Positions 4,157 to 51,760 of a stretch of 64,000 nucleotides of DNA are shown here, piece after piece. The translations under genes were made by a program, and so were the position numbers. The notes under the pieces were generated by a model, which was given only the letters and a program-made list of their open reading frames with translations, had not been told where the DNA came from and did no database searches. The stretch is from an uncultured Acidobacteriota bacterium (GTDB lineage Bacteria > Acidobacteriota > Thermoanaerobaculia > Multivoradales > UBA5704). Every line of letters starts with the position of its first letter. Position 1 is the stretch's first letter. The DNA is taken from positions 1,751,836 to 1,815,835 of the forward strand of contig CAWCIU010000008.1 of assembly GCA_963795735.1 (NCBI GenBank). Reading direction: 5' to 3'.

Positions 4157-6232
4157 ATGCGGAGCCCCCGCCCGTCCCTCGTTTCCGCGATTTCCGTGAT
4201 CCTCCTCGGCCTGTCCCTGGCCGCCTGCCAGACGGCGCCGCCGAAGCCTCCGGCTTCACCGGCCTCGCCGGTATCGCGCGCCGCCGCCGGGCCGGGGGAG
4301 ATCCGCTACGGCTTTCTCTTCTCCGGCAATCCGGCGGGCTCCGCCTCCTCCCGCGTCGAGCCGGACGGCACCCGGGTGGAGACCTTTGAGTTCAACGATC
4401 GCGGGCGGGGCTCCAACACCACCAGCCGCTACCGGCTCGACGACAGGGGGCTGCCGGCGTCCGTCAAGACGACCGGCGTCGACTACTGGAAGACCCCGGT
4501 TTCGGAGCGGTTCGAGCGGACGGGTAGCCATGCCTCCTGGAAGAGCGCGGCGGAGAAGGGGGAGCGCGACGTCCGCGAGCCGGCCTTCTTCCTCAGCCTG
4601 AACGGTCCCCCCCAGGAGAGCGCGCTGCTAGCCAAGGCGCTGCTCGCGGCGCCGGGCCACCGCCTCCCGCTCCTGCCGACCGGGGAGGCCCGGCTCGAGG
4701 AGGTCACCTCGCTGCCGGTCCAGGCCGCCGGGCGCTCCCAGACCGTCCACCTCTACTCGCTCGCCGGCCTCGGCTTCACCCCCGGCTATCTCTGGCTCGA
4801 CGAGAGCCGGGATCTCTTCGCCAGCGTCAGCGGCTGGGGAGCCCTCTTCCGCGAGGGCTGGGTGGACGCCGTCCCGCAGCTCACCCACGCCCAGGATACG
4901 GCCGAGAAGGCGCGGTTCAAGGAGGCCGCCGCCCGGCTCGCCCATCACCCCCAGGGGGGCGGGCTCGCCATCCGTCACGCCCGGCTCTTCGATCCGGCGA
5001 CCGGGGCGTACCGGCCGGACACCACCGTGCTCGTTGCCGGCAACCGCATCCAGGCCGTCGGCCCGGACGCCGAGGTGACCGTGCCCCCCGGCGTCGAGGT
5101 GGTGGACGCCCGCGGCAAGGCCCTTCTGCCGGGCCTGTGGGACATGCACGTCCACCTCGGCGAGGAGCAGGGCCTCTTCAACCTCGCCTCCGGCGTGACC
5201 AGCGTGCGCGATCTCGCCAACGACGTCGACCAGCTCATCGACATGCGCCGGCGCTGGGATTCGGGCGAGGGGATCGGCCCCCGCGTGCTGATGGCCGGCT
5301 TCCTCGACGGCCCCGGCCCCTACGCGGGTCCCACCAAGGCGCTGGTCTCCACCGAGGCGCAGGCTCTGGAGTGGGTGGACCGCTACGCCAAGCTCGGCTA
5401 CGTGCAGATCAAGCTCTACAGCTCGCTCGATCCCAAGCTGGTGCCGCCAATCGTCAAGCGCGCCCACGAGCTGGGGCTGCGGGTCTCCGGCCACATCCCC
5501 AACGGGATGAGCGCCGAGCAGGCGGTGCGCGCGGGGTACGACGAGATCCAGCACGTGAACTTCCTGGTCCTCAACTTCCTCGACCCGAAGATCGACACCC
5601 GCACCCCGGCCCGCTTCTCCGAGGTGGCCAGGCACGCCGCCGAGCTGGACCTCCACTCCGAGCGGGTGAAGGATTTCATCGCCCTGCTCAAGGCGCGCGG
5701 CACCGTTTCCGATCCCACCCTCAACGCCTTCGAGGGGATGTTCAAGGCCCAACCCGGCGAGGTGGACCCCAGCCTCGCCGCGGTGGCGGACCGCCTGCCC
5801 CCCCAGGTGCAGCGCGGCCTCTACAATGCCGGCCTCAACCCGCCGGCCGACCAGGTGCAGCGCTACCGCGACTCCTACCGCGCGATGCAGAACCTGGTGA
5901 AGTCCCTCTACGACGCCGGGGTGACGATCGTCGCCGGCACCGATGCCATGGCGGGCTTCACCCTCCACCGCGAGCTGGAGCTCTACGTGGATTCGGGGAT
6001 TCCCGCCCCCGAGGCGCTGCGCATCGCCACCCTGGGCGCGGCGCGGGTCATGAAGCGGGACCGGGACCTCGGCTCGGTCGCCCCGGGCAAGCTGGCCGAC
6101 CTGATCCTGGTGGACGGCGATCCCGCGGCGCGCATCTCGGACATCCGCCGCGTGGTCCTCACCGTCAAGGACGGCGTGGTCTACGACCCCGCGGCCCTCT
6201 GGCGCGAGGTCGGGGTCAAACCGGTGGAATGA
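4157..6232 (+). CDS. amidohydrolase family protein (secreted/lipoprotein, N-terminal extra domain)
   Basis: Signal/lipobox LGLSLAAC. Metal-binding motif PGLWDMHVHL. The C-terminus AGTDA...LILVDGDP is typical of the amidohydrolase superfamily. Confidence 0.8.
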   Translation: MRSPRPSLVSAISVILLGLSLAACQTAPPKPPASPASPVSRAAAGPGEIRYGFLFSGNPAGSASSRVEPDGTRVETFEFNDRGRGSNTTSRYRLDDRGLPASVKTTGVDYWKTPVSERFERTGSHASWKSAAEKGERDVREPAFFLSLNGPPQESALLAKALLAAPGHRLPLLPTGEARLEEVTSLPVQAAGRSQTVHLYSLAGLGFTPGYLWLDESRDLFASVSGWGALFREGWVDAVPQLTHAQDTAEKARFKEAAARLAHHPQGGGLAIRHARLFDPATGAYRPDTTVLVAGNRIQAVGPDAEVTVPPGVEVVDARGKALLPGLWDMHVHLGEEQGLFNLASGVTSVRDLANDVDQLIDMRRRWDSGEGIGPRVLMAGFLDGPGPYAGPTKALVSTEAQALEWVDRYAKLGYVQIKLYSSLDPKLVPPIVKRAHELGLRVSGHIPNGMSAEQAVRAGYDEIQHVNFLVLNFLDPKIDTRTPARFSEVARHAAELDLHSERVKDFIALLKARGTVSDPTLNAFEGMFKAQPGEVDPSLAAVADRLPPQVQRGLYNAGLNPPADQVQRYRDSYRAMQNLVKSLYDAGVTIVAGTDAMAGFTLHRELELYVDSGIPAPEALRIATLGAARVMKRDRDLGSVAPGKLADLILVDGDPAARISDIRRVVLTVKDGVVYDPAALWREVGVKPVE

Positions 6233-36510: not shown

Positions 36511-36721
36511 GACGTTCTTCCTCCGAGTGTAAAATCTGCCTTAAGGGATACCAACCTCTCCGCGGGAGGGCCGGCCGCCACGCCGTCCTGGACGGAGGTC
36601 GTGGACGGAGGAAACTCGTCCTTGCAGAAAACCTGCCGGTGTGTCCCTTCCTGAGGAGGTGTCCTGCTCGAGGATCAGGAGCTGGTATGCTGTCCGTGAA
36701 AGAGAGCCAGGAAACCCGTTC

Positions 36722-36958
36722 ATGCGAGCCATCAAGCTTCAAGCCCACGTCGAGAAGGATCACACCCTGAGCCTCAAGCTCCCGGAGGACGTGCGCGAGG
36801 GTCCCGCGGAAGTCATTGTCCTCGTCCCGGACAAAGCCGCGAAGCCCTCCCACTCGCTGAGCGATTTCTTGACCCGACTGCCTCGCCGTCCTCGCCAACT
36901 CCGCTCGAAGGAAGAGATCGACCGCTACCTGGAACAAGAGCGCCAGAGCTGGAAGTAG
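36722..36958 (+). CDS. type II antitoxin (VapB-like), 78 aa
   Basis: Small acidic/basic protein immediately upstream (2-bp gap) of a PIN toxin gene. Confidence 0.5.
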   Translation: MRAIKLQAHVEKDHTLSLKLPEDVREGPAEVIVLVPDKAAKPSHSLSDFLTRLPRRPRQLRSKEEIDRYLEQERQSWK

Positions 36959-36960
36959 CA

Positions 36961-37371
36961 ATGGCGAGCGTCTACCTGGACAGCTGCATCGTCATTTATC
37001 TGATTCAAGGTCCAGAAGAGCTGAGCAAGGCCATTCTCCAGGCTCTCCGCCCAAGCGAGGGAGAACCTCCCTGGTCCTTGTTCTCGGATCTGACCCGGCT
37101 GGAGTGCAGAGTCTGGCCCATGCGGCAGGGCAATGACCAACTCCTTCACCAGTTTGATGAATTCTTTGCGAGCGAGGATCTCACTAGAATTCCCATGACG
37201 GCCGAAACCTTCGACCTCGCGACAGAACTACGAAGTCTCCATGGCGTCAAGACGCCTGATGCACTGCATCTCGCGGCTGCCATTCTTGGAGAGTGCCAGG
37301 AGTTTTGGACCAATGACCTGCGGCTGAGCGCGTCAGCCGAGAAACGGATCGAGGTCAGGGTCTTCTCGTAA
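36961..37371 (+). CDS. vapC: PIN-domain toxin VapC
   Basis: YLDSCIVIYL (Asp in strand 1), TNDLRL near the C-terminus. PIN fold, 136 aa. Confidence 0.7.
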   Translation: MASVYLDSCIVIYLIQGPEELSKAILQALRPSEGEPPWSLFSDLTRLECRVWPMRQGNDQLLHQFDEFFASEDLTRIPMTAETFDLATELRSLHGVKTPDALHLAAAILGECQEFWTNDLRLSASAEKRIEVRVFS

Positions 37372-37466: not shown

Positions 37467-38063
37467 TCAGCGGCAGAGGACCATCGAGACGGCCAGCGCG
37501 AGCAGGGTGACCAGGGCGGCGAGCCCCAGCCCCGCCGGCAGCGCCAGGGGCGGCGGACCTCGCCGGAGGAGCGGGCGGGCGGCGAGGACCACGGTGGTCA
37601 GGGAGATCGCCAGGAAGACGAGCCCCACGGCGAGCGCGGCGGTCCAGCCGGCCTCCCGGAGCAGGAGCGCCATCACGGCCCCGCCGAGAGCGGAGTAGAT
37701 GACCGGCACGCCGATCAGGATCCAGAGCCATTCCCCCAGGCTCACCGGTCCGGACGGCGGCGGGGGCTCCTCGACCCTCCGCAGCCGGCCGCGATGGAGC
37801 CACAGGACCACACCGGCGGCGGCCATCAGGGCGAAATGCAGCCAGAGGAACCGGTCGACATACCAGCCGGTCGCCGGCGGGTAGTACCGCCAGTGGCCGC
37901 CGCGGAACCGGATGCCGTACGTGTGGAGGGCGTCGGGAGCCGGCACCCATCCCCACGTCGTCAGCGCATAGCCCACCCAGAAATTGACGAACAGGAGGAC
38001 GAAGACCACCCCGAAGGCCACCGGGGTCCGGCCGGTCCAGACGAAGCGGACGGACGTTTTCAT
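37467..38063 (-). CDS. integral membrane protein (5-6 TM), unknown function
   Basis: Hydrophobic profile. Adjacent to the tandem repeat array and the peptide genes. Confidence 0.4.
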   Translation of the reverse strand: MKTSVRFVWTGRTPVAFGVVFVLLFVNFWVGYALTTWGWVPAPDALHTYGIRFRGGHWRYYPPATGWYVDRFLWLHFALMAAAGVVLWLHRGRLRRVEEPPPPSGPVSLGEWLWILIGVPVIYSALGGAVMALLLREAGWTAALAVGLVFLAISLTTVVLAARPLLRRGPPPLALPAGLGLAALVTLLALAVSMVLCR

Positions 38064-38165
38064 CGATCGTTTCCCGCCGGCGGTCCCCCAGGGAGGGGGC
38101 CAGCGCCGCGAAGCTTATCCGACCGGAAGACGCCGGCGCCGTGTCCGCCGGCGCGCCTTCCGCCA

Positions 38166-38360
38166 AGGTTGGCGCAGAGCGCGTGAAGCTTGGCGCGGAG
38201 TGCGCGAAGCTTGGCGGGGAACGCGTGAAGGTTCGCGCGGAAGGCGTGAAGCTTGGCGCAGAGCACGCGAAGCTTGGCGCAGACCGCGTGAAGCTTGACG
38301 TGGAGCGCGTGAAGCTTGGCGCAGAGCGCGTGAAGGTTGGCGCGCTCTGCGCCAAAGCGA
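38166..38360. repeat. Tandem array of ~9 x 21-bp units (consensus ttGGCGCAGAGCGCGTGAAGC, each containing AAGCTT), ending in a perfect palindrome ggcgcgctctgcgcc
   Basis: Seen directly: ggcgcagagcgcgtgaagctt ggcgcggagtgcgcgaagctt ggcggggaacgcgtgaaggtt ... Period is 21 bp, i.e. two helical turns. Confidence 0.8.
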
Positions 38361-38415
38361 AGAAAGCGCCTTCACCCTGCCAGGAGCGGAGCCCCGGCCG
38401 CACCTTCCCTGCTTC

Positions 38416-38583
38416 TCAGCAGCAGATGGTGACCCTGCAACTGTGGCAGGCGGTCTTGCACGAGGTATCGAAGGAATCGCAGATGGCAGCGGTACGACCG
38501 ACCGCCCAGCGGAGCCACTCGCCGGTGTCGAGCGAGCTCAGAGTCTCCCGGTGCAGGGTCAGCTTCTTTTGGCTCTTCTTCAT
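38416..38583 (-). CDS. bacteriocin/RiPP-like precursor peptide (55 aa): leader MKKSQKKLTLHRETLSSLDT..., Cys-rich core ...AICDSFDTSCKTACHSCRVTICC
   Basis: Strong RBS aaggagg 6 nt before the ATG. Not in the ORF track because it is under 60 aa. The leader is conserved with the neighbouring peptide. 7 Cys in the last 22 residues. Confidence 0.6.
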   Translation of the reverse strand: MKKSQKKLTLHRETLSSLDTGEWLRWAVGRTAAICDSFDTSCKTACHSCRVTICC

Positions 38584-38770
38584 ACGGGGCCTCCTTTTTG
38601 AAGAGCTGCCATTCTACTCCCCAATTCGCCCTGCGGTGCTCCCGGCGGGACGTCTTTTCTAAGGGTTCGCCGCTCCATCGGCCACGCCCGGGTGAGAAGG
38701 TCCCCAGCCGGGGCGGCGTCTCGGAGCCGTCCGGACCCGCCACCCCGTCCTCAATCGGAAAACGACCGCG

Positions 38771-38998
38771 CTACTGGGCGCAGACGCACCAGGAGAAGGC
38801 GTTGGAGTCGGCGCAATGATTGGCGTCCCCCGAGGCGCAGAACTGCTCGTTGCAGTACGTGTACGACGCACCGCACACGTTGACGCTGTCGCACCCGGGT
38901 CCGCTCAAGGTGCCGCCGATGACGTGCCCGAGGGCAGGGTCCGTCAGATGCCGCAAGGTCTACCGGTGGAGAGTCAGGCTCTTCTTCAGCCTCTTCAT
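38771..38998 (-). pseudogene. second bacteriocin/RiPP-like precursor with in-frame TAG in leader: MKRLKKSLTLHR*TLRHLTDPALGHVIGG-TLSGPGCDSVNVCGASYTYCNEQFCASGDANHCADSNAFSWCVCAQ
   Basis: RBS ggagga plus ATG at 38998. The TAG sits at the codon that is GAG (Glu) in the paralog. Downstream is a double-glycine-type leader end (VIGG) and an 8-Cys core. The ORF-track call 38771..38956 starts at an internal TTG. Confidence 0.55.
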
Positions 38999-39527
38999 GT
39001 TTGTATCCTCCTACCGTCCAGAGTGCGTTCCGCGCCGGAAGGCGATACGGGCCGCCGAGAGGGCGGGGAGGGCTGGTTCACTCCCGTGAGAACGAAGACC
39101 GGCCCTGCGAGCCAGCAACGCCCGTCCTCGGAGGCGGTAGAGACGTTCCCAGGCGATGAACGACATCTTGGGGAGTCCACGGGGACGGCGGGACGTCTCT
39201 TCGGAGGGTTCGCCGAGATCCCGTAAAGGTCGACACACATCCCGTAACGTTCGCACTGTGCGCCAAGGCTGGGGGAGCCCCGGCAAGCTATGGGAGAGTG
39301 TGGAAGGTGGCAAAGACAGCGCGAATACTGGCGGAAAGTTAACGATGGACTTTTCAACGTGTTTCGCTTGAGATACAATGGCTCTATAAGCTAACCTGAG
39401 GCCTCCTGAAGGGTATGAACGAAGCGGCTGCCTGTCGAAGACATGGCTCTGCACTTCCAGACAACGGGTGAGGAATGAGGATTATTGGTTGGCATTCGTG
39501 TGTCATATCTCTGGGATCACTTGAATT

Positions 39528-41597
39528 TTGCACATCTTCATGACTTCACGCCAGTCAACATCTAGTCTCCAGAGCCGAGAGATACTGCTTCTTGAGGATA
39601 ACTCCGGGGCGTCGGAGAGGCGACATCAGGTCGGCGTCTCTCGTCAAATCGTTCACTCTACCATTACCATCAGGGTGCACCGAATAAGCGGTACATCTTC
39701 GCAACTAGCTGCGAGCAGGACCTACAAAGTCGGAACCTTATCCGGCGAGCGCAATGGGCGCATCCAACTCGCTATGCGTCTCCTTGATCGGGCTAAGCCT
39801 AAGAAGGGCTGCGTCGTCGCAGCTGGGACATCCTATGGCTCTGCGGCGACCTTTTTGAGGGCGCTGTCCAATATTGGTCTGTCCTTCGTTGTTCAGGTGA
39901 GGCCCAGCACATTGCTTGACGTGCTCGGAACGAAGGCTAAACTAAGCACGGCCGGGGAGCTACTGGCTGGAGGCCAATGGGAGGCGGTGACGTTGCCACT
40001 GCTGGACGGGACAAAAGTGGACTATGTAGCTGCTAAGCTGGCAGATGTCGACCTAACCATAGGTCCCGCCAAGCTCTTTGCCGCTCGTGTCGGTGGTGTA
40101 GAGGGCGCTCAGCGGAGTACGATCATCGGCCTCTCTTCCTTTGACGCGAGCATAAGTGAGCTTGTACAGATCATCGGCTACACACGATGGATAAGGCCGA
40201 TCTCCCGGAGACAGGACAGAGCGGCACGGGGGGTAGCCGGACGTGCGGAGCCAGAAGGTAATGCAGCAACTCTGAGAGCCCGCGCCAATATCACATCAGC
40301 TCGCCAGCAGGATGATCGTGCCAGAGAGGGGAATATGTACGTCCTCGGGTACTCCCCAAGAGGAGTTCTGCAATCCTGTGGGTCAACTCTTAACGTCGCA
40401 GAGTTGTTTGCGGGCGCCGGTGGTATGGGGCTTGGCTTTCTCTTGGCAACCGGAGGAGAGGGACGCTACCGTCTCGTATATTCCGGAGAAGTGAATCCAA
40501 TCTACGTCCAGACGCTTCGAACGAACCATGAAGCATTACCGGGCGTCGTGGGCGGAGCCGGTGAAGCGCTTATTCCCGAGTATACGGAGGCGGCGGATCT
40601 GCGACGAGAGGAAACCCTGGCTAGCGTCAAAGAGGTCGGGTGCCAAAAGGGTGGCATTCACGTGCTCATTGGTGGCCCCCCATGCCAAGGATTTTCCATG
40701 GCTAATCGCAATTCTTGGCACGGTCGCAACCCGCACAATCGCCTCGTGGATGTATTTTTTAAATACGTCGAAGAGCTCCGCCCAAAAGTCTTCCTAATGG
40801 AGAACGTGCAGGGGATCCTCTGGACTCCTAAGGGAGGTAGGCCGGTCTCGGTTGTTGACGTCATAGAACGTCGTATGCGAGCGGCAGGCTACATAGTATT
40901 TCCAAAGCTACTCGACGCAGTATGGTATGGCGTGCCTCAGCATAGGACTCGCTTCTTTCTAATGGGACTCCACCGTGATCTTGGATATCGCTCCGACAGC
41001 TTTGGAGAATGGGGGCCGTTTCCTGTTCCGACGCATGGCGGAGAGTCCTCGCCGTGGGTAACGACAAGGGAAGCACTTGCCGATCTTCCCCGCATAGGCA
41101 ATGGTGCGTCGGTGGAGGATCTCGCCTATATTGACCCTTCGCCTGCTGCGCTAAAACAGAATCCATTCCTCAATTACATCAGGGATGGGGCTGAGCGTGG
41201 TTTGGTCTTTGACCACGTAACCTCTAGGCATGCTGAATATGTAATCGACCGCTATCGTAAAATACCGCCTGGCGGTAATTGGGAAAGCATCCGCGAAGAA
41301 CTATCTAACTACGCCGATGTTTCGCGCACCCACAGCAATATTTACCGTCGCCTGCGATGGGACGAACCATCTATTACGATTGGACATTATCGCAAGAGTA
41401 TGCTCGTGCACCCTAGTCAGCATCGAGGTCTCTCCCTTCGCGAGGCGGCGCGGCTGCAATCGTTTCCCGATTGGTTTCACTTCGCGGGAACAGTAAGCGG
41501 GCGTGATGGAGGAATTGTTCATAAACAACAGCAACTCGCTAATGCTGTCTGCCCGCTGGTAACGAAAGCTGTTGCAGAGTTCATCCTGCATCTATGA
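39528..41597 (+). CDS. DNA (cytosine-5)-methyltransferase with ~280-aa N-terminal extension of unknown function; DruM-like
   Basis: Motif I AELFAGAGGMGLGF, motif IV PPCQGFSMANR, ENV motif FLMENVQG, later QSFPDWFHF. Lower GC than flanking DNA. Confidence 0.8.
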   Translation: MHIFMTSRQSTSSLQSREILLLEDNSGASERRHQVGVSRQIVHSTITIRVHRISGTSSQLAASRTYKVGTLSGERNGRIQLAMRLLDRAKPKKGCVVAAGTSYGSAATFLRALSNIGLSFVVQVRPSTLLDVLGTKAKLSTAGELLAGGQWEAVTLPLLDGTKVDYVAAKLADVDLTIGPAKLFAARVGGVEGAQRSTIIGLSSFDASISELVQIIGYTRWIRPISRRQDRAARGVAGRAEPEGNAATLRARANITSARQQDDRAREGNMYVLGYSPRGVLQSCGSTLNVAELFAGAGGMGLGFLLATGGEGRYRLVYSGEVNPIYVQTLRTNHEALPGVVGGAGEALIPEYTEAADLRREETLASVKEVGCQKGGIHVLIGGPPCQGFSMANRNSWHGRNPHNRLVDVFFKYVEELRPKVFLMENVQGILWTPKGGRPVSVVDVIERRMRAAGYIVFPKLLDAVWYGVPQHRTRFFLMGLHRDLGYRSDSFGEWGPFPVPTHGGESSPWVTTREALADLPRIGNGASVEDLAYIDPSPAALKQNPFLNYIRDGAERGLVFDHVTSRHAEYVIDRYRKIPPGGNWESIREELSNYADVSRTHSNIYRRLRWDEPSITIGHYRKSMLVHPSQHRGLSLREAARLQSFPDWFHFAGTVSGRDGGIVHKQQQLANAVCPLVTKAVAEFILHL

Positions 41598-41598
41598 C

Positions 41599-43596
41599 AT
41601 GAGCTCCTTCGAAAGGTATACCCTCTGGAACTATATGTTGGCGGAGCAATGCCTGCTAACGGGTTCTAATCAAGGCGCTGTACTGCTCACGGTAACGCCG
41701 CGGATCCTCGCTGCTGCGTTGGATGAGGCTAAAGAAGGATTGCAATCACCTGAGGAGGCTGAGGCGGACTTCGTTACAGCTGTAACATTTGTTTATAAGG
41801 AACATGTGCTGCGAAGGCCAGAAAGGTTGCGAGCTTTAAAGTCGTCGGATAAGACAGAGGTTCCCTTAAGTGTCGGGTTCCTCGCTCTTTCCGTTCTCGC
41901 TGCCTACCGTATGCGTACTGATGGTGAGCGCACAGGACGGGCCTATTATGCGAGGCTTGGCGAGATGGTCGGCTGTGGGCTAGTTGGTAATTTTCCCCTA
42001 GGGTTTGATCCAGATGCATTCGTGGAATTATGGGATGAGCTGGCGCAATGGCTCGAAACTCAGTACGGCCGACGGCTTGTCCTTCCTGTGGCTGGGGGTG
42101 TGCAAAAGTTCGTAGCCTACCCTCTTGCACATGTTCCATTGCGACGAGTGGACATTGATCGACTACCGCAGTTCTTTGATTCCTACGGTTACGAGCCAGG
42201 GATGCGCGCTCCGTTGGATTCGCTTGCCTACGATCTCTATAAAGGAGCCGGTCCTTGGCGACATCTAACGAGAGTAGGTCAACGTGCTCTGGAAGATCCG
42301 GGCCGTCGTCCTTTCGTGATTCGGCAAGTCGCCCATGAACTCGAGCACTGGGATGGCTGTCGAACTGACTCATACGGCACGCGGATAGCCACCATCGCAT
42401 TGTGGATGGACATCCGTCGACGGCGGGTTCAACTCTCCTTGCTCGCCAGACGGCCCCAGGGCTTTCCTGAAGAAATTGAGAATGAAGATCTTGTTTTTGT
42501 TTCAAGCCAAGAGGGATGGTACGAGCCAATCCTGCTCGGGCCCGATGACGGTGCTCTTCTCAGTGAGGGTCTTCGAATAGACGCCTGTGCATCCGGCAGT
42601 CGCTGTCTTCTCCAGCTTCGTGGATTCACTGTCGTTCCGTTAACGCCCTCTGAAGAGTATGCGGGTCTTGTTTCGGATTCCGTCCTGCGCGCGGGCACGC
42701 GATGTGCGGTGCTCTGTGCGGAATCGATGATTGAGGATGTTTCTCGATACCTTGAGTTGCTGAACAACGGGCCCGTTTATCCTCGCCGCGATGAGAACCT
42801 ACCTAAAGGCTGGTGCCTGTTCACCGATGTCGAGCTGTCTTCCGATGCCGCTCCGCCGGTTGGCCTCGAGCGTCTCCGGGCCGAGGCCAGTATTGCTCTG
42901 GTCCCTGTGGGAGGGCTGCGCCTCGGGCGTCGTTGGACTTGGCTGGAAGGTGCATCTGCGTGCCTCAGGATCGTCGGCGCTCGTCAAGGGCTAGAAGTAC
43001 GCGTCGATGGGCAAGAGGCGAAACTGGACAGCGAAGGACATCTGCCTGCCGCTCTCTTGAGGGCCGAAGGAACGCATGTTGTTGAGGTCGGTAACCGGTT
43101 GAGACAACTGATCGCTGTACTACCTGGCGCCGTGAATCCGGAGTGCAGGTCTTGGGAATGCAACGAGCCAATTCTCAGCCGGATTCCCGTAGCAGTACCT
43201 GAGGGACATTGGGCTGTTATTGGGTCCGTACCTGGCGAACTCGCAACCGTATTTGCGTCTTCCGAAGGTGCGCTCATCCGGCCAGACTTCTTTGCCCGGT
43301 GGGCAGTGAAGATAGGTACTCGTCGTAGTGCAACCGCGCTTCATCTCCATGACGTGGGTGCCTCTTTAATGGCCGAGTGGGATAGGGATGACGTAACAAG
43401 GATTCAAGCCCCGTGTTTACGCGCGGGGTTTACTTCGGCTCAGTCGTGGGCGGAAATAATCTATCAGGCCGGAATTCGCAGACCGCATCTCGTGTGTACA
43501 TTAAAGTGCCAAGTCCAGGAGCTTGCAGCTGAATGGCGACGCTTAATGGAGAAGGCACGCTCTGTGAAGCGGGAGATAAAGAGGGGGCGCCGGTGA
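41599..43596 (+). CDS. hypothetical protein (665 aa), DruF-like position in Druantia type II-like operon
   Basis: The ATG lies 2 nt after the MTase stop. No recognisable motifs. Confidence 0.5.
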   Translation: MSSFERYTLWNYMLAEQCLLTGSNQGAVLLTVTPRILAAALDEAKEGLQSPEEAEADFVTAVTFVYKEHVLRRPERLRALKSSDKTEVPLSVGFLALSVLAAYRMRTDGERTGRAYYARLGEMVGCGLVGNFPLGFDPDAFVELWDELAQWLETQYGRRLVLPVAGGVQKFVAYPLAHVPLRRVDIDRLPQFFDSYGYEPGMRAPLDSLAYDLYKGAGPWRHLTRVGQRALEDPGRRPFVIRQVAHELEHWDGCRTDSYGTRIATIALWMDIRRRRVQLSLLARRPQGFPEEIENEDLVFVSSQEGWYEPILLGPDDGALLSEGLRIDACASGSRCLLQLRGFTVVPLTPSEEYAGLVSDSVLRAGTRCAVLCAESMIEDVSRYLELLNNGPVYPRRDENLPKGWCLFTDVELSSDAAPPVGLERLRAEASIALVPVGGLRLGRRWTWLEGASACLRIVGARQGLEVRVDGQEAKLDSEGHLPAALLRAEGTHVVEVGNRLRQLIAVLPGAVNPECRSWECNEPILSRIPVAVPEGHWAVIGSVPGELATVFASSEGALIRPDFFARWAVKIGTRRSATALHLHDVGASLMAEWDRDDVTRIQAPCLRAGFTSAQSWAEIIYQAGIRRPHLVCTLKCQVQELAAEWRRLMEKARSVKREIKRGRR

Positions 43597-44489
43597 AGTG
43601 GGACTTGCTGCTTGAGTGGATGACACACATGGGCTCGGGCCACTGGGGTGCATTCCGCGAGGCCGTGGCGGAGCTTGCCGACCCCGATGATCCTGAGATG
43701 CCGGTGCTGGCCCAGAAGCTTCGTATTGCTCTTTCGGACCTTGGCCACGTGGATTTTTTCGTTGATGGGCCCCGACGCTGGCAGGTACTGCGGCCGGCCT
43801 TAGTTGGCTTGGCTGGTAGCAACGCGCACCTGTTCGTAGGCGGTCGTACCCGGCATCTTGCCGAGAAGTTGACATCGAGCCTGCTGGAAGGTGGAGCGTC
43901 GGTATCCATCACAAAAATCAATCCCGGGCTTGCACGTATCTGCCTGGAGGGCCCACAAGAGATTCTGCGCGCGACCGCCAAAGACCTCGGGCTTGAATAT
44001 GTGCCTGTAGCCTCAGCTCTGCTTGCTTCCCGACTTCTGCCGCTGCGGCATACGATCGAGTGGGCTCCTGCTCGTCCAGAGCCGATCAACTGGGCCGTAC
44101 GATCGTGGTCGTTTGAGAGCAAAGCGTGGATTCATGGCAGGTTCGCGCGTACTGCACTAGAGTACACTAACCGGCATGGGGCAAGTAGATACATGATCGA
44201 TCTTGGCCATGCCGGCCTTCGGGACTTCAACAAGCGCGTATCCATTTACGGGGCGGCTTTTTTGAAGGGTAGGCGGATTATCCGCTACTGCTTCGAGAGA
44301 GAACGCCTTCTGGTACCCCGTTGGGCTCCACTCCCGGAGCCTTATTCCCGTGTGGCGTGCTTGGCTGGCGGGCAACTCGCCACCGTTCAGGAAGATGATC
44401 TTGTCTTTGAATCCGTCACCCCCAATATAGCGTCGATGCTCTTGATTGCACTAGGACAGGGGTATCCAAAGCACGGAGATGTTTTATGA
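43593..44489 (+). CDS. hypothetical protein (~298 aa), DruG-like position
   Basis: GTG start overlapping the upstream stop (GTGA) with RBS agaggggg. The stop overlaps the next ATG (ATGA). Confidence 0.5.
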   Translation: MKWDLLLEWMTHMGSGHWGAFREAVAELADPDDPEMPVLAQKLRIALSDLGHVDFFVDGPRRWQVLRPALVGLAGSNAHLFVGGRTRHLAEKLTSSLLEGGASVSITKINPGLARICLEGPQEILRATAKDLGLEYVPVASALLASRLLPLRHTIEWAPARPEPINWAVRSWSFESKAWIHGRFARTALEYTNRHGASRYMIDLGHAGLRDFNKRVSIYGAAFLKGRRIIRYCFERERLLVPRWAPLPEPYSRVACLAGGQLATVQEDDLVFESVTPNIASMLLIALGQGYPKHGDVL

Positions 44490-47400
44490 ATGATCCATTT
44501 TTTACATTCCACCAGCTTCGGGAGACCTACCTTCGGTATCTGGACAGCCCTTTTCGCCTCAGGTATAAGGCACTGATGGAGGAGCGTCGCACTCTCCTTG
44601 ATCGGGATCGACAGCTCTACCGAGAACCTCTCTTTGAGCCAGTCGTGCCGTATGAGTCATCGAAATTGACCATGCGAGGTGCGTGTTCGCATCTCGGGGT
44701 TTCATCTGATGTCGCAGAGTATCTGGATACCGGTGGCCTCTTTCCGTCGAGTCGCGAACTCTTCCAGCATCAATTGGATGCTTGGGAATCTTCGCGCAAG
44801 GGTGATGCCGTGATCGTGACGACGGGTACAGGGTCCGGGAAGACGGAGTGCTATCTGCTCCCAGTGTTCGCCTACCTCGTTGAGGAATCGACAAGATGGG
44901 GTGCGCCATCGGCACGCTCGCCTCACTATCTCTGGTGGTCTCACCCACGGCAGCAACGTATCCCGCAGCGTGCCCACGACACTGGTCGAGCTAAGGCTCT
45001 TCGCGCACTTTTTTTGTACCCGCTTAATGCGCTTATCGAGGATCAGCTAGGGCGGATACGCACGGCTTGTGATGGTCCCAATGGACGGCGGTGGCTGACG
45101 AACTGCCGGGCCGGAAACCGTTTTTGGTTCGGGCGCTATACGGGTGCCACGCCTGTTTCGGGGCCCCAAACCAACGCTAAGCGACAAGAGTTGAAGCGGC
45201 GCCTGCAAGACATAGAAGATGAGTGGGATCGTGCCCGACTTTCCGCTGCCCGATCCGGTAACGATGACATTCTCTCCTATTTCCAAGACCCTGATGGAGC
45301 GGAAATGTGGTCTCGCTGGGATATGCAGGAGGATCCGCCGGACATTCTCATCACTAACTATAGCATGCTTAACATTATGTTAATGAGGAGCCTGGAGAGT
45401 GACGTATTCGACCAGACGAAGGCGTGGCTCGCGCAGGATCGCGACAGGAATGTGTTTCACCTCGTTGTGGATGAGCTCCATACCTATCGAGGCACACCCG
45501 GAACTGAAGTAGGCTATCTGCTTCGCGCATTGCTGCACCGCCTCGGCCTAACTCCGGACTCGCCGCAGCTTCGAATTATTGCGACAAGTGCTTCGATTGA
45601 TGCAAATGATCCAGGAAGTACCGAATATTTGGAGGAATTTTTTGGGAGAGACCCATTGACCTTCAAGATCATCGAAGGGAAGCGGACTGCCTTCTCAAGC
45701 GGAAGCGGCACGCGAAGTGCTCAGCCCTTCGTTGTCTTCGGACAGGGGCTCGAGGAAGGAACTCTCGCTACTGCCGTCGCACGCCTCGCGGCTGATACAG
45801 GTGTTATACCGCGAGAGTCGAGTCCCGAGCGTCGGCTGGCCGAGGTACTCAGCACCACCGGTGTTATGGAGCTGGTGCGTTGCGAAGGAGAGCAGGGACC
45901 ATTTACGAGCACGCGCCTTGGAGAGTCCCTCTTCGGGACAGATCCCGATGCAGGGGTAGCTACCCATGCCATAATTAGGGGGCTGATCCTCGCGCGGGAG
46001 GTACGGGGTGGGTTAGAAGTCGCTCCTCTTCCCCTCAGAGTACATTACTTTTTTCATAATGCTGGGCGGCTTTGGGTCTGCGTTAATCCACAGTGCTCTG
46101 GACGTACAGGGACCACGTCACCGGGTGCCGAGGTGCCTCCGGTTGGTAGACTCTATGTTGAGCCGCGGCCGCGCTGCGAAAACTGTAATGCCCGCGTACT
46201 CGAGCTTCTATATTGTCAGCCGTGTGGAGAGGTTTTTGTTGGTGGCTATCGTGCCGAAGATTGCAACATCAATAATGCATGGTTTCTATCGCCTGACTTT
46301 CCCGACCTGGAGCATGTCCCAGACCGGTCGACCTCACCAAAGAGGATTCACATTGAGTACCTTGTTTTCTGGCCCGCAAACGGGCGACCATTGGTGCGCA
46401 GTAATCATGCGGGCCCATCTTGGGGGTGGCAGCAAGACGGGCAGGCAGGCTATCAGTGGCGCCCGGCCTCGCTCGACATGGTGGAAGGCCGCCTCTCTCT
46501 AAGCCCGCCCCGGCGCTCCACTAGCCCATCCGAGATAGCAGGTTATGCCTTCATTGCTCCTTTGGCTCATGCCGATGCTTTTCCTGCAAAGTGTCCCCAC
46601 TGTGCGGCAAACTGGGGCAGGCGCCTTGGTGTTAAGTCTCCGATCCGAGATCTCGGATCTGGTTTTCAACGCATCATGCAGATTCTCGGCGACGCACTCG
46701 TACGTGAGATTCCTGAAGGACCGGGCCGGAAGCTGGTTCTTTTCTCAGATTCCCGACTTGATGCAGCGAAGCTCTCAACGGGGATCAAGCTCGCACATTA
46801 CAGGGATACTCTCCGCCAGATCGCATTTGAGACTCTTGGTACGGCGGGCACTGCGGCAAAGCGACTTCATCAGGAGAATCAGGAGATATCTCAGCAGGCG
46901 ATTGAGCTGTACGCCTTGCTACAGAAGCGGGAGGCGGAAGGCCTCTCCGACCGAGAGAATGCACGCCGGAAAGAGCTGATGAGCGCCCTTCCTGGAAGCA
47001 TCGTTGGGGATCTTACAAAGTACGCAGTGACAGGTGGAACTCCTCCCAATGTTCTCGTGCCTCCGGTGCCTCCTGGGGCTCTCATATTCATGCCCTTCCG
47101 ACAGCTCATCGATCTTGTACGTACGCAATTGTTCTCCAAGGGTATAAACCCGGGCGGCCCGTTGCCATCAGTCGCGACATACCAGCCTCAGCGAAGTGGA
47201 CCAAAAGCCTTGTGGACAAATCTTCTCGACTGGTCGACAGCTCAGCCAAACTATCAGGCCGGTCTGCAGCCTCTGGAGCGGAACCTTCAAGCGAGCATCG
47301 AGGTCTCTCTTCGCGAGAACGTTATATCCAGCGTTCTCTTTGCATCAGCGGCAAGAGACTTCGAGTCTCTGGGGCTCGGCTACTTGTGGACCAGCAACGT

Positions 47401-50020
47401 TCCTCCCTCAACTACGGTTCGGCAAGCAGCGGCAAGCGTCGTGCGTATTCTTGCGCAGAAGTGGCGTTGGACCGGGTCCGATGCCCAAGGCAGTGGCCAA
47501 GCGCCAGCCTACGTGACAAGCTACCTTGAAAAGGTCTCTATGTATCTTGGTATAACCGCAGGTGACCTGCAGCGTGATGTCGAAGATTCTCTGGGTCCTT
47601 GCCTGGACCAATGGCTCGTACGTCCCGATTCGATGATAGTTGTCAGTCCACGACCTCACCACGATGGCACGATTGATATGTATAGGTGCGGCCGTTGCGG
47701 TTGCTCACACCTTCATGCTTCGGGCGGGTTCTGCATCGCGTGCCATGCGACGTTGCCTGCTGGTCCAGTACGGCACGACGTGACCGGTACTCCAACAGAT
47801 TATTACGAGTACCTGGGGCGATGCCTGGAAAGGCCATTCCGTCTTAATTGCGAGGAGTTGACTGGCCAGACTAACCGAGTAGATCGGCGCCTGAGGCAGA
47901 GGCGATTCCAAGAAGTATTCATGGATGATGAAGTCGAGGTGGCAAGTGGCGTTGACCTTCTGAGCGTGACGACTACCATGGAAGCTGGTGTCGATATCGG
48001 CGCTTTGCAGGTAATCGCTCTGGCGAATATGCCGCCGGTCCGCTTCAACTATCAGCAACGAGTTGGGCGAGCAGGCCGGCGTGGGCTCGGGCTTTCCGCC
48101 GCTCTCACGCTATGCCGCGGAAGGAGCCATGACGACTACTACTTCGAGCGGCCTCACCTCATCACTGCCGAGCCGCCTCCTCGCCCGTACGTGGACGTGA
48201 GTAGGCCAGAAATCGCTCGACGCGTAATAAACAAGGAGCTGTTGCAGCGCGCCTTTGCAACCCTGAATCTTCCGTACAGCGGAGACAATGTCCACGGCGA
48301 GTTCGGTTTGGTATTGGATTGGCCGGGCTATCGTGGTCAGGTCTTGGCATGGGTTAACGCCAATAGCCGGATGGTGGAAGATATCTGCCAAGTTATTTTG
48401 CGGCGCACTAAATTAAACTCGGCAGCGGCTTTCGCCTCTATAGTCCGCCATGTTACCAATGATTTGATTTCCCAGATAGACCACGTTGCGCAGAATAGTC
48501 TCGGCCACGACGCTCTCAGCGAACGACTTGCTTCTCACGGCGTGCTTCCTATGTTTGGGTTCCCGACCCGAGTTCGTTACTTATTCCACGGGGGGCCGCC
48601 TCGTGCCGATGCCGGCTGGCCTCCTGAACGCGGCGTCGTTGACCGGCAACTCGACATTGCTATTAGCCAGTTCGCTCCCGGAGCGCAAACTGTGAAAGAC
48701 GACCAACTTCTAACATCCGTCGGCGTAGTCAACTACTACCCCTCTGGACGAGCCATTGTCACAACTCCGAATCCGCTTGGGGACTTTGTACCGGTAGGTG
48801 TCTGCCGAAGGTGCCAAGCGTTGGTGGAAGATCCGGCACCGGTCGGAGGTTGCCCGTACTGCACTGCCCCTCGCGGCAAGGACGACTATAGGACGGTAAA
48901 TCTCTCCGAGCCTCCCGGGTTCATGACTTGGTGGTCCGTCGAAGCGGAGTACAACGGTGTTTTCGAGTTTACACCGCGTGCACTCAGGGCTCGAATGGGC
49001 CGTGCGCCAGGAAATCCTGCTAGGCTCCAAAACTTTGAGGTCGACCAAGGACCAGCGCGAATTCACCGCATTAACGACAACGGCGGCGAAGACTTTCTCT
49101 TTCAGAAAATTGCCGTCGGCGACATCTGGATAGTTGATCAGGCGTTTCAGCGAGCCCTCCAAGATCTCCCTGCCGATCGGCAGCGAGCCATCCCCCCGCC
49201 TCAGTATGACAGGTCCGCTGCGCCGCTCACTCGTGCTCTTGCATCGATCGGCAGCACCGACGTGCTTGTGGCAGGCATTCAGAGCGTTCCCGTTGGTATC
49301 ACCTTGAATCCTGCCAATCCGGAGTCGCGGGCGGCCTGGTACTCTTTCGGCTTCTTCTTACGAAGGGCCGCAGCGGTTGTTCTTGACGTGGCAGAAGCCG
49401 AGCTCGACGTTGGCATTCAGCCCATGATGGACATGCAGACGCCCTTCGCGCCGCCTTCTGCGCGCATCTTTATGTCCGACAGCTTGGAGAACGGGGCAGG
49501 CTATAGCACACACCTCGGAGAACCTTCAAGGTTCGAGGAACTTCTCCGCTTCATGATGGGGCAGGGAACATCGGGCGCATCAAAAGAATTTTTCGACCCG
49601 CTTGTCGGTACTCCTCATGAACACGAATGCTCAAGCTCCTGCCATCGTTGTCTGCGTGACTATGGCAATATGCCGTATCATCCGCTTCTCGATTGGCGTC
49701 TCGGGCTGGATATGGTCCGCCTCGCTCTGGATCATGCCGCGCCGATGGACCTGTCGCAGCCATACTGGGACAGCCTCTTGCAACGTACGGCTCCTCCATA
49801 CTTTAAGGGATTGAACTATACACAGACTACCCTCGCTAACCTACCGGCTGGCTACGACCCAGGGACGGGCGATGTCGTTATTCTCATCCACCCGCTCTGG
49901 GATCGTGATCCCGCTAATCTCCGGCCTGAGATTGTTGCGGCTGTAGCACAAGCGGAATCGCGGGGGTGGCGCTGGAAGCTCCAGACCATCTTCCGAGCAG
50001 TCCGGTTCCCCTACGAATAG
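44486..50020 (+). CDS. 1844-aa DEXH helicase with C-terminal DUF1998/MZB domain; DruE-like (Druantia) defence helicase
   Basis: Walker A VIVTTGTGSGKTECYLLP, DEXH VVDELHTYRGTPGTE, helicase C motifs (QQRVGRAGRRG), C-terminal Cys cluster CSSSCHRCLRDYGNMPYH. Homologous to the MrfA-like helicase at 410..3574. Confidence 0.75.
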   Translation: MNDPFFTFHQLRETYLRYLDSPFRLRYKALMEERRTLLDRDRQLYREPLFEPVVPYESSKLTMRGACSHLGVSSDVAEYLDTGGLFPSSRELFQHQLDAWESSRKGDAVIVTTGTGSGKTECYLLPVFAYLVEESTRWGAPSARSPHYLWWSHPRQQRIPQRAHDTGRAKALRALFLYPLNALIEDQLGRIRTACDGPNGRRWLTNCRAGNRFWFGRYTGATPVSGPQTNAKRQELKRRLQDIEDEWDRARLSAARSGNDDILSYFQDPDGAEMWSRWDMQEDPPDILITNYSMLNIMLMRSLESDVFDQTKAWLAQDRDRNVFHLVVDELHTYRGTPGTEVGYLLRALLHRLGLTPDSPQLRIIATSASIDANDPGSTEYLEEFFGRDPLTFKIIEGKRTAFSSGSGTRSAQPFVVFGQGLEEGTLATAVARLAADTGVIPRESSPERRLAEVLSTTGVMELVRCEGEQGPFTSTRLGESLFGTDPDAGVATHAIIRGLILAREVRGGLEVAPLPLRVHYFFHNAGRLWVCVNPQCSGRTGTTSPGAEVPPVGRLYVEPRPRCENCNARVLELLYCQPCGEVFVGGYRAEDCNINNAWFLSPDFPDLEHVPDRSTSPKRIHIEYLVFWPANGRPLVRSNHAGPSWGWQQDGQAGYQWRPASLDMVEGRLSLSPPRRSTSPSEIAGYAFIAPLAHADAFPAKCPHCAANWGRRLGVKSPIRDLGSGFQRIMQILGDALVREIPEGPGRKLVLFSDSRLDAAKLSTGIKLAHYRDTLRQIAFETLGTAGTAAKRLHQENQEISQQAIELYALLQKREAEGLSDRENARRKELMSALPGSIVGDLTKYAVTGGTPPNVLVPPVPPGALIFMPFRQLIDLVRTQLFSKGINPGGPLPSVATYQPQRSGPKALWTNLLDWSTAQPNYQAGLQPLERNLQASIEVSLRENVISSVLFASAARDFESLGLGYLWTSNVPPSTTVRQAAASVVRILAQKWRWTGSDAQGSGQAPAYVTSYLEKVSMYLGITAGDLQRDVEDSLGPCLDQWLVRPDSMIVVSPRPHHDGTIDMYRCGRCGCSHLHASGGFCIACHATLPAGPVRHDVTGTPTDYYEYLGRCLERPFRLNCEELTGQTNRVDRRLRQRRFQEVFMDDEVEVASGVDLLSVTTTMEAGVDIGALQVIALANMPPVRFNYQQRVGRAGRRGLGLSAALTLCRGRSHDDYYFERPHLITAEPPPRPYVDVSRPEIARRVINKELLQRAFATLNLPYSGDNVHGEFGLVLDWPGYRGQVLAWVNANSRMVEDICQVILRRTKLNSAAAFASIVRHVTNDLISQIDHVAQNSLGHDALSERLASHGVLPMFGFPTRVRYLFHGGPPRADAGWPPERGVVDRQLDIAISQFAPGAQTVKDDQLLTSVGVVNYYPSGRAIVTTPNPLGDFVPVGVCRRCQALVEDPAPVGGCPYCTAPRGKDDYRTVNLSEPPGFMTWWSVEAEYNGVFEFTPRALRARMGRAPGNPARLQNFEVDQGPARIHRINDNGGEDFLFQKIAVGDIWIVDQAFQRALQDLPADRQRAIPPPQYDRSAAPLTRALASIGSTDVLVAGIQSVPVGITLNPANPESRAAWYSFGFFLRRAAAVVLDVAEAELDVGIQPMMDMQTPFAPPSARIFMSDSLENGAGYSTHLGEPSRFEELLRFMMGQGTSGASKEFFDPLVGTPHEHECSSSCHRCLRDYGNMPYHPLLDWRLGLDMVRLALDHAAPMDLSQPYWDSLLQRTAPPYFKGLNYTQTTLANLPAGYDPGTGDVVILIHPLWDRDPANLRPEIVAAVAQAESRGWRWKLQTIFRAVRFPYE

Positions 50021-51229: not shown

Positions 51230-51760
51230 TTCCATTCCAGCGGTGCCCCCCTGGATCTCCGTCATCGCCCTCTCTGCGCGCGCCATTGCCCTCCAGGCGT
51301 GCGCCTTCACCAACCAGGGGGACCTCATTGCCCTCTGGTGGTGCGTCATCGCCCTCTGGTTTTTCCTTCCGGCCCCCTGGTTTTGCGGGGTTGCCCACTG
51401 GAAATTCGACCCGGCCCTCTGGGTTGGCGGCTCCGCCCTTTAGTTTGATGGCTCCGCCCTCTGGTTTGACGGCGTGCCCCCTTCAGTCCGCGATACGTAA
51501 ACCCAGAGGGCCGCATCGCAAATCCAAGGGGCCGGCTCGAATTTCCAGGGGGCAGAGCCGCCGTCTCGTGGGGCGGAGCCGTAACCTCAGGGGGCCGATA
51601 CCGCAAACCAGGGGGCCGGGCTGGAAAAGCAAGGGGCGCGGCCGGAAATCCAATGGGCGCAGCCGGAAAACCAGGGGGCACGGCGGCCGCTCGGGTTCGC
51701 GCTGCGGGATTTCCAGGGGGCGCACCGGTCCTGGGGTCCCGGAGGAGGCCGCGCGGCCGC
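51230..51760. repeat. ~530-bp composite repeat: left array of ~11 x 21-bp units (cGGCnnnGCCCTCTGGTTTnA) and right array of ~11 units in inverted orientation (TnAAACCAGGGGGCnnnGCCg), centre near 51490
   Basis: Seen directly: ...cggctccgccctctggtttga... | ...aaacccagagggccg, aaatccaaggggccgg, atttccagggggcag, aaaccagggggccggg, gaaaaccagggggcacgg... 21-bp periodicity on both arms. Confidence 0.75.

Follow-up and report, generated by a model that had tools for sequence, protein, structure and literature searches.

What is an array of 21-bp repeats doing upstream of a membrane-protein gene? We analyzed a stretch of 64,000 nucleotides (the window) in which such an array lies between two small peptide genes and the gene for a membrane protein of 198 residues. 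A sequence-only reading had called the array near-perfect and built on an AAGCTT core, and had likened it to regulator-binding arrays or iterons. Full-text literature searches for such an array gave nothing specific. We asked what the array consists of, which gene it belongs with, and which explanation accounts for it best.

A real but imperfect repeat array

Tandem Repeats Finder reported an array of period 21 at positions 38165 to 38343 (8.5 copies, 81% matches, 0% indels, score of 225), and a repeat search of the window counted nine successive 21-nt steps. The 21-bp period of the sequence-only reading is thus confirmed, but nine full units are not. A listing in strict register resolved eight full 21-nt units (38168 to 38335, minus strand), in agreement with Tandem Repeats Finder, together with a degenerate ninth unit, CTTGGCGGAAGGCGCGCCGGC (38147 to 38167, minus strand), and one inverted unit, TTGGCGCGCTCTGCGCCAA (38337 to 38355). 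The inverted unit matches TTGGCG-N7-CGCCAA with zero mismatches, and no other perfect 7-5-7 dyad occurs in the window. The units abut head to tail, all but one in the same orientation. They adjoin directly, without spacers, and this rules out a CRISPR array.

In the sense of the membrane gene the window consensus is CTTCACGCGCTCTGCGCCAAG; on the plus strand it is ttGGCGCAGAGCGCGTGAAGc, the unit first described. "Near-perfect" overstates its regularity. Identity to the consensus averages 89%, and only one unit equals it. AAGCTT, said to be in each unit, was found at the junction in 6 of 9, and the other 3 have AAGGTT. When the 64-kb window was scanned with the consensus AAGCTTGGCGCAGAGCGCGTG, allowing up to 3 mismatches, there were 7 matches, all within the array, and the same search found 0 outside it and 0 in shuffled sequence.

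Logan contig L001, an independent assembly of the same organism, is base-for-base identical across the eight units and then breaks at the terminal inverted repeat. Because the identity runs through all eight units, the array is real and not an assembly artefact. In sum, this is a real but imperfect, noncoding 21-bp repeat array.

The two ends of the array differ. The degenerate unit at 38147 to 38167 is the proximal edge, which is common to the flank of the related contig L015 (GTTGGCGGAAGGCGCGGCGGG), and the alignment between the window and L015 runs on from this unit into the membrane gene. A nonrepetitive spacer, recognized in alignments to relatives, separates the array from the membrane-gene ATG (38064 to 38146, minus strand; 83 to 101 nt). 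It is shared with L015 with several indels, and unrelated sequence takes its place in contigs L016 and L024.

At the distal end, the last direct unit and the inverted unit form a hairpin with a 15-bp stem and a 10-nt loop (38316 to 38355, minus strand), about 60 nt past the stop codon of peptide gene A. This feature had been described as a perfect 15-bp palindrome. Its arms are indeed 100% complementary, but it is an inverted repeat with 15-nt arms 10 nt apart (38316 to 38330 and 38341 to 38355). As minus-strand RNA it has a predicted folding energy of -33.5 kcal/mol (z = -5.4). We rejected it as an intrinsic terminator because the stem is strong but no U-tract follows (the tail is GCUUCACG), and a terminator scan did not call it. 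It could still act as a 3' stabilizer or as a terminator without a U-tract. In the window only, the inverted terminal unit creates a hairpin of about -33 kcal/mol that would mark or stabilize the 3' end of the peptide A transcript and would limit read-through into the membrane gene.

The array goes with the membrane gene in close relatives

The membrane-protein gene (37467 to 38063, minus strand) has 17 homologues, all hypothetical, one of them labeled Thermoanaerobaculia. They share a conserved start, M[RK]TS. The window protein matches no Pfam family. Three metagenome contigs, L015, L016, and L024, encode membrane proteins 85 to 87% identical to that of the window, and all three have a 21-bp array at the same place, 100 to 120 nt upstream of the gene. 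The arrays comprise about 14 units in L015 (5581 to 5883), 15 to 16 in L016 (971 to 1299), and 12 to 13 in L024 (1020 to 1285). A check of copy number between strains had been proposed, and among these relatives it does differ, from 8 to 16 units.

In all four loci the array is on the 5' side of the membrane gene. Its position is kept, and everything further upstream differs. Peptide genes are absent upstream of the array in L016 and L024. Because two of the three orthologous arrays lack them, the array belongs with the membrane gene and not with the peptides, and its place next to peptide genes in the window is incidental. This corrects the picture of the locus, in that the repeat does not go with the lanthipeptide-like genes.

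Each array has its own consensus. In gene sense, that of L015 is CTTCRCGGnCTCYCCGCCAAC, alternating with perfectly dyadic CTTGGCGG...CCGCCAAC units, and that of L016 and L024 is GTTCMCGCGSTCYGCGCCAGC. The junction reads AACCTT or AGCGTT in these arrays, versus AAGCTT in the window. Since the orthologous consensus sequences differ in this way, AAGCTT is strain specific. Between arrays, the unit consensuses are 76 to 86% identical, a drift close to the rate of neighboring DNA.

We extended the comparison to relatives that keep the gene at 70% protein identity or less (L017, L018, L019 to L021, and L025 to L029), and none has an array upstream of it. A metagenome scan with a profile of the membrane protein found only five distant loci, 0 of 5 with an array at the gene. 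The array is therefore confined to the 5' region of the membrane gene in one small subclade of Thermoanaerobaculia.

Two other tandem repeats came to light in these relatives. In L017 (70% protein identity), a different 21-bp array of 13 copies, with a unit of about GCAACCCGGAGCGCAGGCAAC, lies downstream of the membrane gene (2010 to 2287). It is inside an insert of about 455 bp, and on both sides of this insert (1878 to 1919 and 2372 to 2410) is a repeat that duplicates about 38 bp from the gene's 3' end. In the near-identical contigs L027 (3950 to 4063), L028 (3887 to 4000), and L029 (3887 to 3976), the copy number of a 12-bp coding repeat, (EVTG)n, differs; its host is an AlbA_2-type gene fragment upstream of the membrane gene. 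Because this copy number varies among the three, tandem-repeat length polymorphism is common in these genomes.

A conserved two-hairpin element precedes the array

Read along the minus strand, the order in the window is a two-hairpin element, peptide gene B, peptide gene A, the terminal hairpin and array, the spacer, and the membrane gene. The two-hairpin element (39098 to 39215, minus strand) is conserved and has a U-rich, terminator-like tail; it was defined by alignment, a consensus fold, and compensatory pairs. It spans about 120 nt, with a hairpin on a 12-bp stem (AGAGACGTCCCG...UGGGAACGUCUCU), a second hairpin that shows compensatory changes, and the tail CUUCGUU. Copies are at 4858 to 4965 and 5453 to 5560 (plus strand) in L015, with an inverted one at 4680 to 4750; at 828 to 950 in L016, with an inverted one at 652 to 738; and at 877 to 1000 in L024, with an inverted one at 683 to 759. 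The element recurs upstream of peptide gene B and of the array, and it forms a divergent inverted pair in all three contigs. The extra copy in L015 lies between peptide gene B and the array, and a truncated element precedes peptide gene A in the window (about 38643 to 38700). Rfam holds no family for it. It may be an unrecognized leader, attenuator, or small RNA.

In L015, L016, and L024, a copy with a terminator-like hairpin ends about 30 nt before the array, and in the window the array begins at the strong hairpin after peptide gene A. Because a terminator-like element or hairpin comes first, the array occupies, in 4 of 4 loci, the stretch from a transcript end to the membrane gene. A promoter-upstream region or a long leader would be expected in such a stretch.

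Unit length and symmetry suggest weak constraint

The units are imperfect dyads. The skeleton TTnnCGS-N5-SCGnnAA is found in all arrays, with compensatory changes. Positions T2 T3, C6 G7, C12, C15 G16, C18, and A19 are invariant or nearly so, and T2 T3, C6 G7, C15 G16, and A19 are kept between array consensuses that differ. In a dyad test of eight pairs around a 5-nt center, 72.9% of cells were paired, versus 28 to 41% in slid controls. At pair 8-14, 22 units have CG and 12 have GC, which is the usual form in L015; at pair 1-21, 16 have GC and 8 have CG. Most units leave 4-18 and 5-17 unpaired. The covariation may go back to as few as two or three independent events.

The profile of variant types is mirror symmetric about position 11 (rho of 0.67, p of 0.03). 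When only distinct variant types are counted, heterogeneity over positions is not significant (p of 0.29), so selection on the skeleton is not proven. All 49 full units in the four arrays are in exact 21-nt register, and none has changed length. These 49 units hold at least 52 to 73 distinct substitution types and zero net length changes, compared with 18 indel events per 70 substitutions in nearby noncoding DNA. The probability of zero length changes is between 1e-8 and about 0.1, according to the indel ratio assumed. We infer from these patterns that unit length and the mirror-symmetric positions are under weak constraint.

A minisatellite is the leading explanation

The best single explanation, to which we give an even chance, is a lineage-restricted minisatellite of variable copy number, weakly constrained in unit length and dyad skeleton. 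A variable-number tandem repeat (VNTR) has head-to-tail units of 10 to 100 bp beyond chance expectation, and the array scored 225, with 0 matches to its consensus in shuffled sequence. It also differs in copy number at the same locus, as seen here with about 8.5, 14, 15 to 16, and 12 to 13 units. Concerted evolution and lack of translation are the other marks of a VNTR, and we found both; each array has its own homogenized consensus. Tandem Repeats Finder scored higher-order periods of 42, 63, and 84 bp above 21, and L016 has three identical consecutive units. These higher-order periodicities and runs of identical neighbors point to unequal exchange or slippage of whole units or blocks. The variable copy number (8 to 16), the drifting consensus, and the absence from slightly more distant relatives are likewise signs of neutral turnover, as is the finding of neither a cognate protein nor further sites.

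The array may have arisen through amplification of a hairpin-prone dyad, and it would then grow and shrink by slippage or unequal exchange of whole units or blocks. The dyad itself might favor slipped-strand events and so help the array to persist. If the array has any role, the most plausible one would be to present dyad sites, all on one DNA face, to a dimeric protein that binds ahead of the membrane-gene operon. However, a strict 21 bp in four lineages and placement at the same gene could reflect a dedicated function, in which case "minisatellite" would be an incomplete description.

The mycobacterial MIRU-VNTRs offer a comparison. They are repeats of 40 to 100 bp at tens of loci per genome, with small open reading frames that overlap flanking genes. 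Like them, the array consists of head-to-tail intergenic repeats in a high-GC genome, by or within operons, with a copy number that varies between strains, whole-unit gain or loss, and homogenization inside each array. Unlike them, it is a 21-bp imperfect dyad at one locus only, without a consistent open reading frame. If the array is only a minisatellite, it is still a useful strain marker for an uncultured Thermoanaerobaculia lineage.

A phased regulator-binding array is a possible but doubtful alternative

The sequence-only reading favored regulator binding, and this is the strongest competitor of the minisatellite, although we think it unlikely. Each 21-bp unit would be an operator-like dyad for a dimeric protein, and cooperative binding on one face of the DNA would activate, repress, or insulate the membrane-gene operon to a degree set by the copy number. 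That the sites share a face is a matter of arithmetic alone: with a helical turn of 10.5 bp, 21 bp make two turns. The dyad skeleton with its compensatory changes and the mirror-symmetric variability are as expected for such sites, as is the fixed unit length despite frequent indels in adjoining noncoding DNA. G-T and A-C wobble combinations number 20 in the sense strand and 26 in the antisense strand. Because these counts are similar, neither RNA strand is favored, and this fits a dyad that works at the DNA level. Location also speaks for a regulator. The array is upstream of the same gene in four loci that differ further upstream, and because a terminator-like structure precedes it in all four, it is where a promoter-upstream region is expected.

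However, the conserved neighborhood, which consists of HbpS-like, ArgZ-like, small membrane protein, and ABC transporter genes, encodes no DNA-binding protein or domain. Neither the window nor the fetched loci contain the motif outside the arrays, and hence there is no visible regulon. Eight to 16 sites far exceed typical operators, most units depart from the dyad at positions 4 and 5, and the consensus drifts about as fast as neighboring DNA. The gene is kept without the array in relatives with 70% protein identity or less. Nor was a promoter located: a scan found no sigma-70-like site in the window, L015, or L016, where the host's promoters may be of another type.

A known system offers a comparison. 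TTTTGAT heptad repeats of 7 bp, in 3 to 8 copies, are bound by ToxR upstream of Vibrio cholerae ctxAB. Both are direct tandem repeats upstream of a gene, with a strain-variable copy number. Unlike the ctxAB repeats, which have a known binding protein, the array has 8 to 16 units of 21 bp, a drifting consensus, and no mapped promoter. A bolder version of the regulator array, which we consider improbable, is a selected, phase-locked platform of 8 to 16 dyad sites. A protein would polymerize on one face of it, and the complex would serve as an insulator or switch, tuned by copy number, where a defence-island hotspot meets the conserved membrane-protein operon. If the weak signs of constraint (the fixed unit length, the mirror-symmetric conservation, and the compensatory changes) do reflect function, then this would be a rare chromosomal case of a long, helically phased dyad array controlling a core operon beside such a hotspot.

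RNA elements, coding repeats, iterons, and dispersed repeats

The array might instead work as RNA. It would then lie in a long 5' untranslated region or intercistronic spacer of the membrane-gene mRNA, where its string of small hairpins could attenuate or insulate, stabilize the transcript, or sequester a protein like a sponge. The 352-nt intergenic region folds more stably than shuffled sequence on either strand (z of -4.5 and -5.0), but this is expected because any array of dyads would show such folding. The terminal hairpin is strong, L015 units that are perfect dyads fold strongly (-11.4 kcal/mol), pair 2-20 is U-G in 15 sense-strand units, and the array follows a structured, leader-like element in L015, L016, and L024. 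Against this, a typical single unit folds weakly (-4.9 kcal/mol, z of about -1), and the wobble pairs show no strand asymmetry. Rfam searches at gathering and E-value thresholds returned only subthreshold noise from microRNA hairpins, on the terminal hairpin. An RNA-level element is therefore a poor fit in our estimate, with a small probability.

A coding heptad repeat, with a repetitive protein read from one of five open frames (such as minus-strand LHALCAK or plus-strand KLGAERV), is much less probable still. Its appeal is that 21 nt make 7 codons, that unit length never changes, that gene callers place open reading frames here, and that 5 of 6 frames are open in each locus. The open frames, though, are expected of a repeat that is stop-poor and GC-rich. 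Frame F_a (LHALCAK) has GC3 > GC1 > GC2 and in the window ends in an ATGA overlap with the membrane gene, but there its first start codon is an internal GTG. Frame F_c (FTRSAPS) is interrupted by a TGA in L024, and in the window it would run out of frame across all of the membrane gene. The window and L015 differ by a 1-nt indel that breaks the link between the array frame and the flank they share downstream.

Six frames were translated in four loci, and a heptad-repeat protein was rejected: no frame has a conserved start and stop across them, and variation has no 3-base periodicity, with no excess at third codon positions in any phase. There were no Pfam or NCBIfam matches, and a search of 5.8 billion proteins with the F_a translation found no homologue. 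This bears out the earlier view that the array is noncoding and that the plus-strand frame at 38141 to 38662 is spurious. The callers themselves disagreed: they chose F_a for both L001 and L016, whereas in L015 they took the opposite strand, and in L024 they made no call. The three different false open reading frames that they made from the array are a warning for annotation.

The least probable of these readings, with close to no chance of being right, takes the array for iterons, the other suggestion of the sequence-only reading, or for a centromere-like array; a replicon or integrated element would then have its origin, or a site of the parC or sopC type, here. The 22-bp iterons of R6K and pPS10, the 11-bp repeats of R1 parC, and the 43-bp repeats of F sopC, the units of which contain an inverted repeat, sit beside rep or par genes on replicons. 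The array resembles them in unit size (17 to 22 bp) and in tandem, same-orientation units at an integral helical-turn spacing that keeps one face, and it adjoins a horizontally acquired, low-GC defence island. Unlike them, it has no rep or par genes. No Rep, DnaA, ParA, ParB, or ParR genes are nearby, there is no AT-rich unwinding region (the GC content is 0.66), and blastn searches of 72,556 plasmids and 50,697 phages gave no match. With respect to the island border, the array falls on the side of the conserved core, and it persists beside quite different islands. Replication iterons were rejected because the neighbors encode a membrane protein, peptides, a VapC toxin, and Druantia proteins, with no rep gene. 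A partition centromere of the parC, sopC, or parS type was rejected because Pfam and PADLOC found no parA/parB or parM/parR among them.

We also considered a dispersed family of the REP or BIME type. REP elements of enterobacteria and pseudomonads occur in hundreds of dispersed copies, alternating in orientation within BIMEs, and many of them follow the 3' end of a gene, where their hairpins can stabilize the mRNA upstream. The units are imperfect palindromic intergenic repeats like these, and the window hairpin after peptide gene A resembles 3' hairpins that stabilize mRNA. Unlike REP elements, all units but one are head to tail, and there were no other copies in the sequence searched, which comprised the 64-kb window and 29 loci (about 150 kb of related sequence). 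The dyad skeleton was likewise found only within arrays in the window and fetched loci, the source genome being covered by the 64-kb window only. A degenerate 21-mer gave 13 single chance matches in 185,579 species genomes, a collection that evidently lacks the source species; they were in unrelated genes, and none was periodic. The concern that the unit is a repeat dispersed over the genome is thus answered for the sequence covered.

Neighboring genes and the defence island

Peptide gene A (38416 to 38583, minus strand) was recognized by a leader profile and synteny. It encodes a precursor-like peptide of 55 residues with a Cys-rich C terminus, and its leader scores 21.9 bits against lant_leader_L1a, just under the cutoff of 22, and resembles class I lanthipeptide leaders. 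The gene is found only in the window, at the place taken in L015 by the proximal copy of the two-hairpin element. Peptide gene B (38771 to 38998, minus strand), identified from translations, has an in-frame TAG at codon 13 (38960 to 38962; MKRLKKSLTLHR*TLRHL...). The L015 orthologue is intact and reads ...LHRETLRHL.... The window copy is either a pseudogene or would need read-through. Small Cys-rich peptide genes that are unrelated in sequence repeatedly precede this family of membrane genes (38416 to 38583 in the window, 5063 to 5290 in L015, and 1550 to 1762 in L026). The L026 peptide has 70 residues and a signal sequence apparent by eye, and its gene ends 16 nt before the membrane gene. This recurrence is a hint that the two kinds of gene are functionally linked, for example in immunity or processing.

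On the other side of the membrane gene, between it and the HbpS-like gene, the window has a VapC (PIN) toxin gene with a small upstream gene (36641 to 37371, plus strand). The pair is missing at the same spot in L015, L016, and L024, and it adjoins the membrane gene in L026 to L029.

Past 39.2 kb, the window contains a low-GC island (39528 to 50020; GC content of 0.56 versus 0.69). It encodes a Druantia-like defence system, DruM/DruF/DruL/DruE: a DruM-like C5 methyltransferase with a long N-terminal extension, DruF-like and DruL-like proteins, and a DruE of 1,844 residues (1,803 bits). In several relatives this position ahead of the membrane gene is taken by other genes of defence or nuclease type (a methylase with an SNF2 helicase, Vsr, AbiEii, and AlbA_2), and a small upstream open reading frame in L016 is HNH-like, by eye only. 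Because the defence-type or nuclease genes at this position differ between relatives, the comparison suggests that it is an island hotspot.

A second repeat field, with units of about 21 to 22 bp, lies just past the right end of the Druantia island (51400 to 51720). The open reading frames around it had no Pfam matches. It begins with three direct units (GCCCTCTGGTTTGACGGCTCC, 51414 to 51473), followed by at least 8 units in the opposite orientation (AAAyCCAGGGGGCnnnnC, about 51498 to 51720). It resembles transposon-end or integrase arm-type sites, or iterons.
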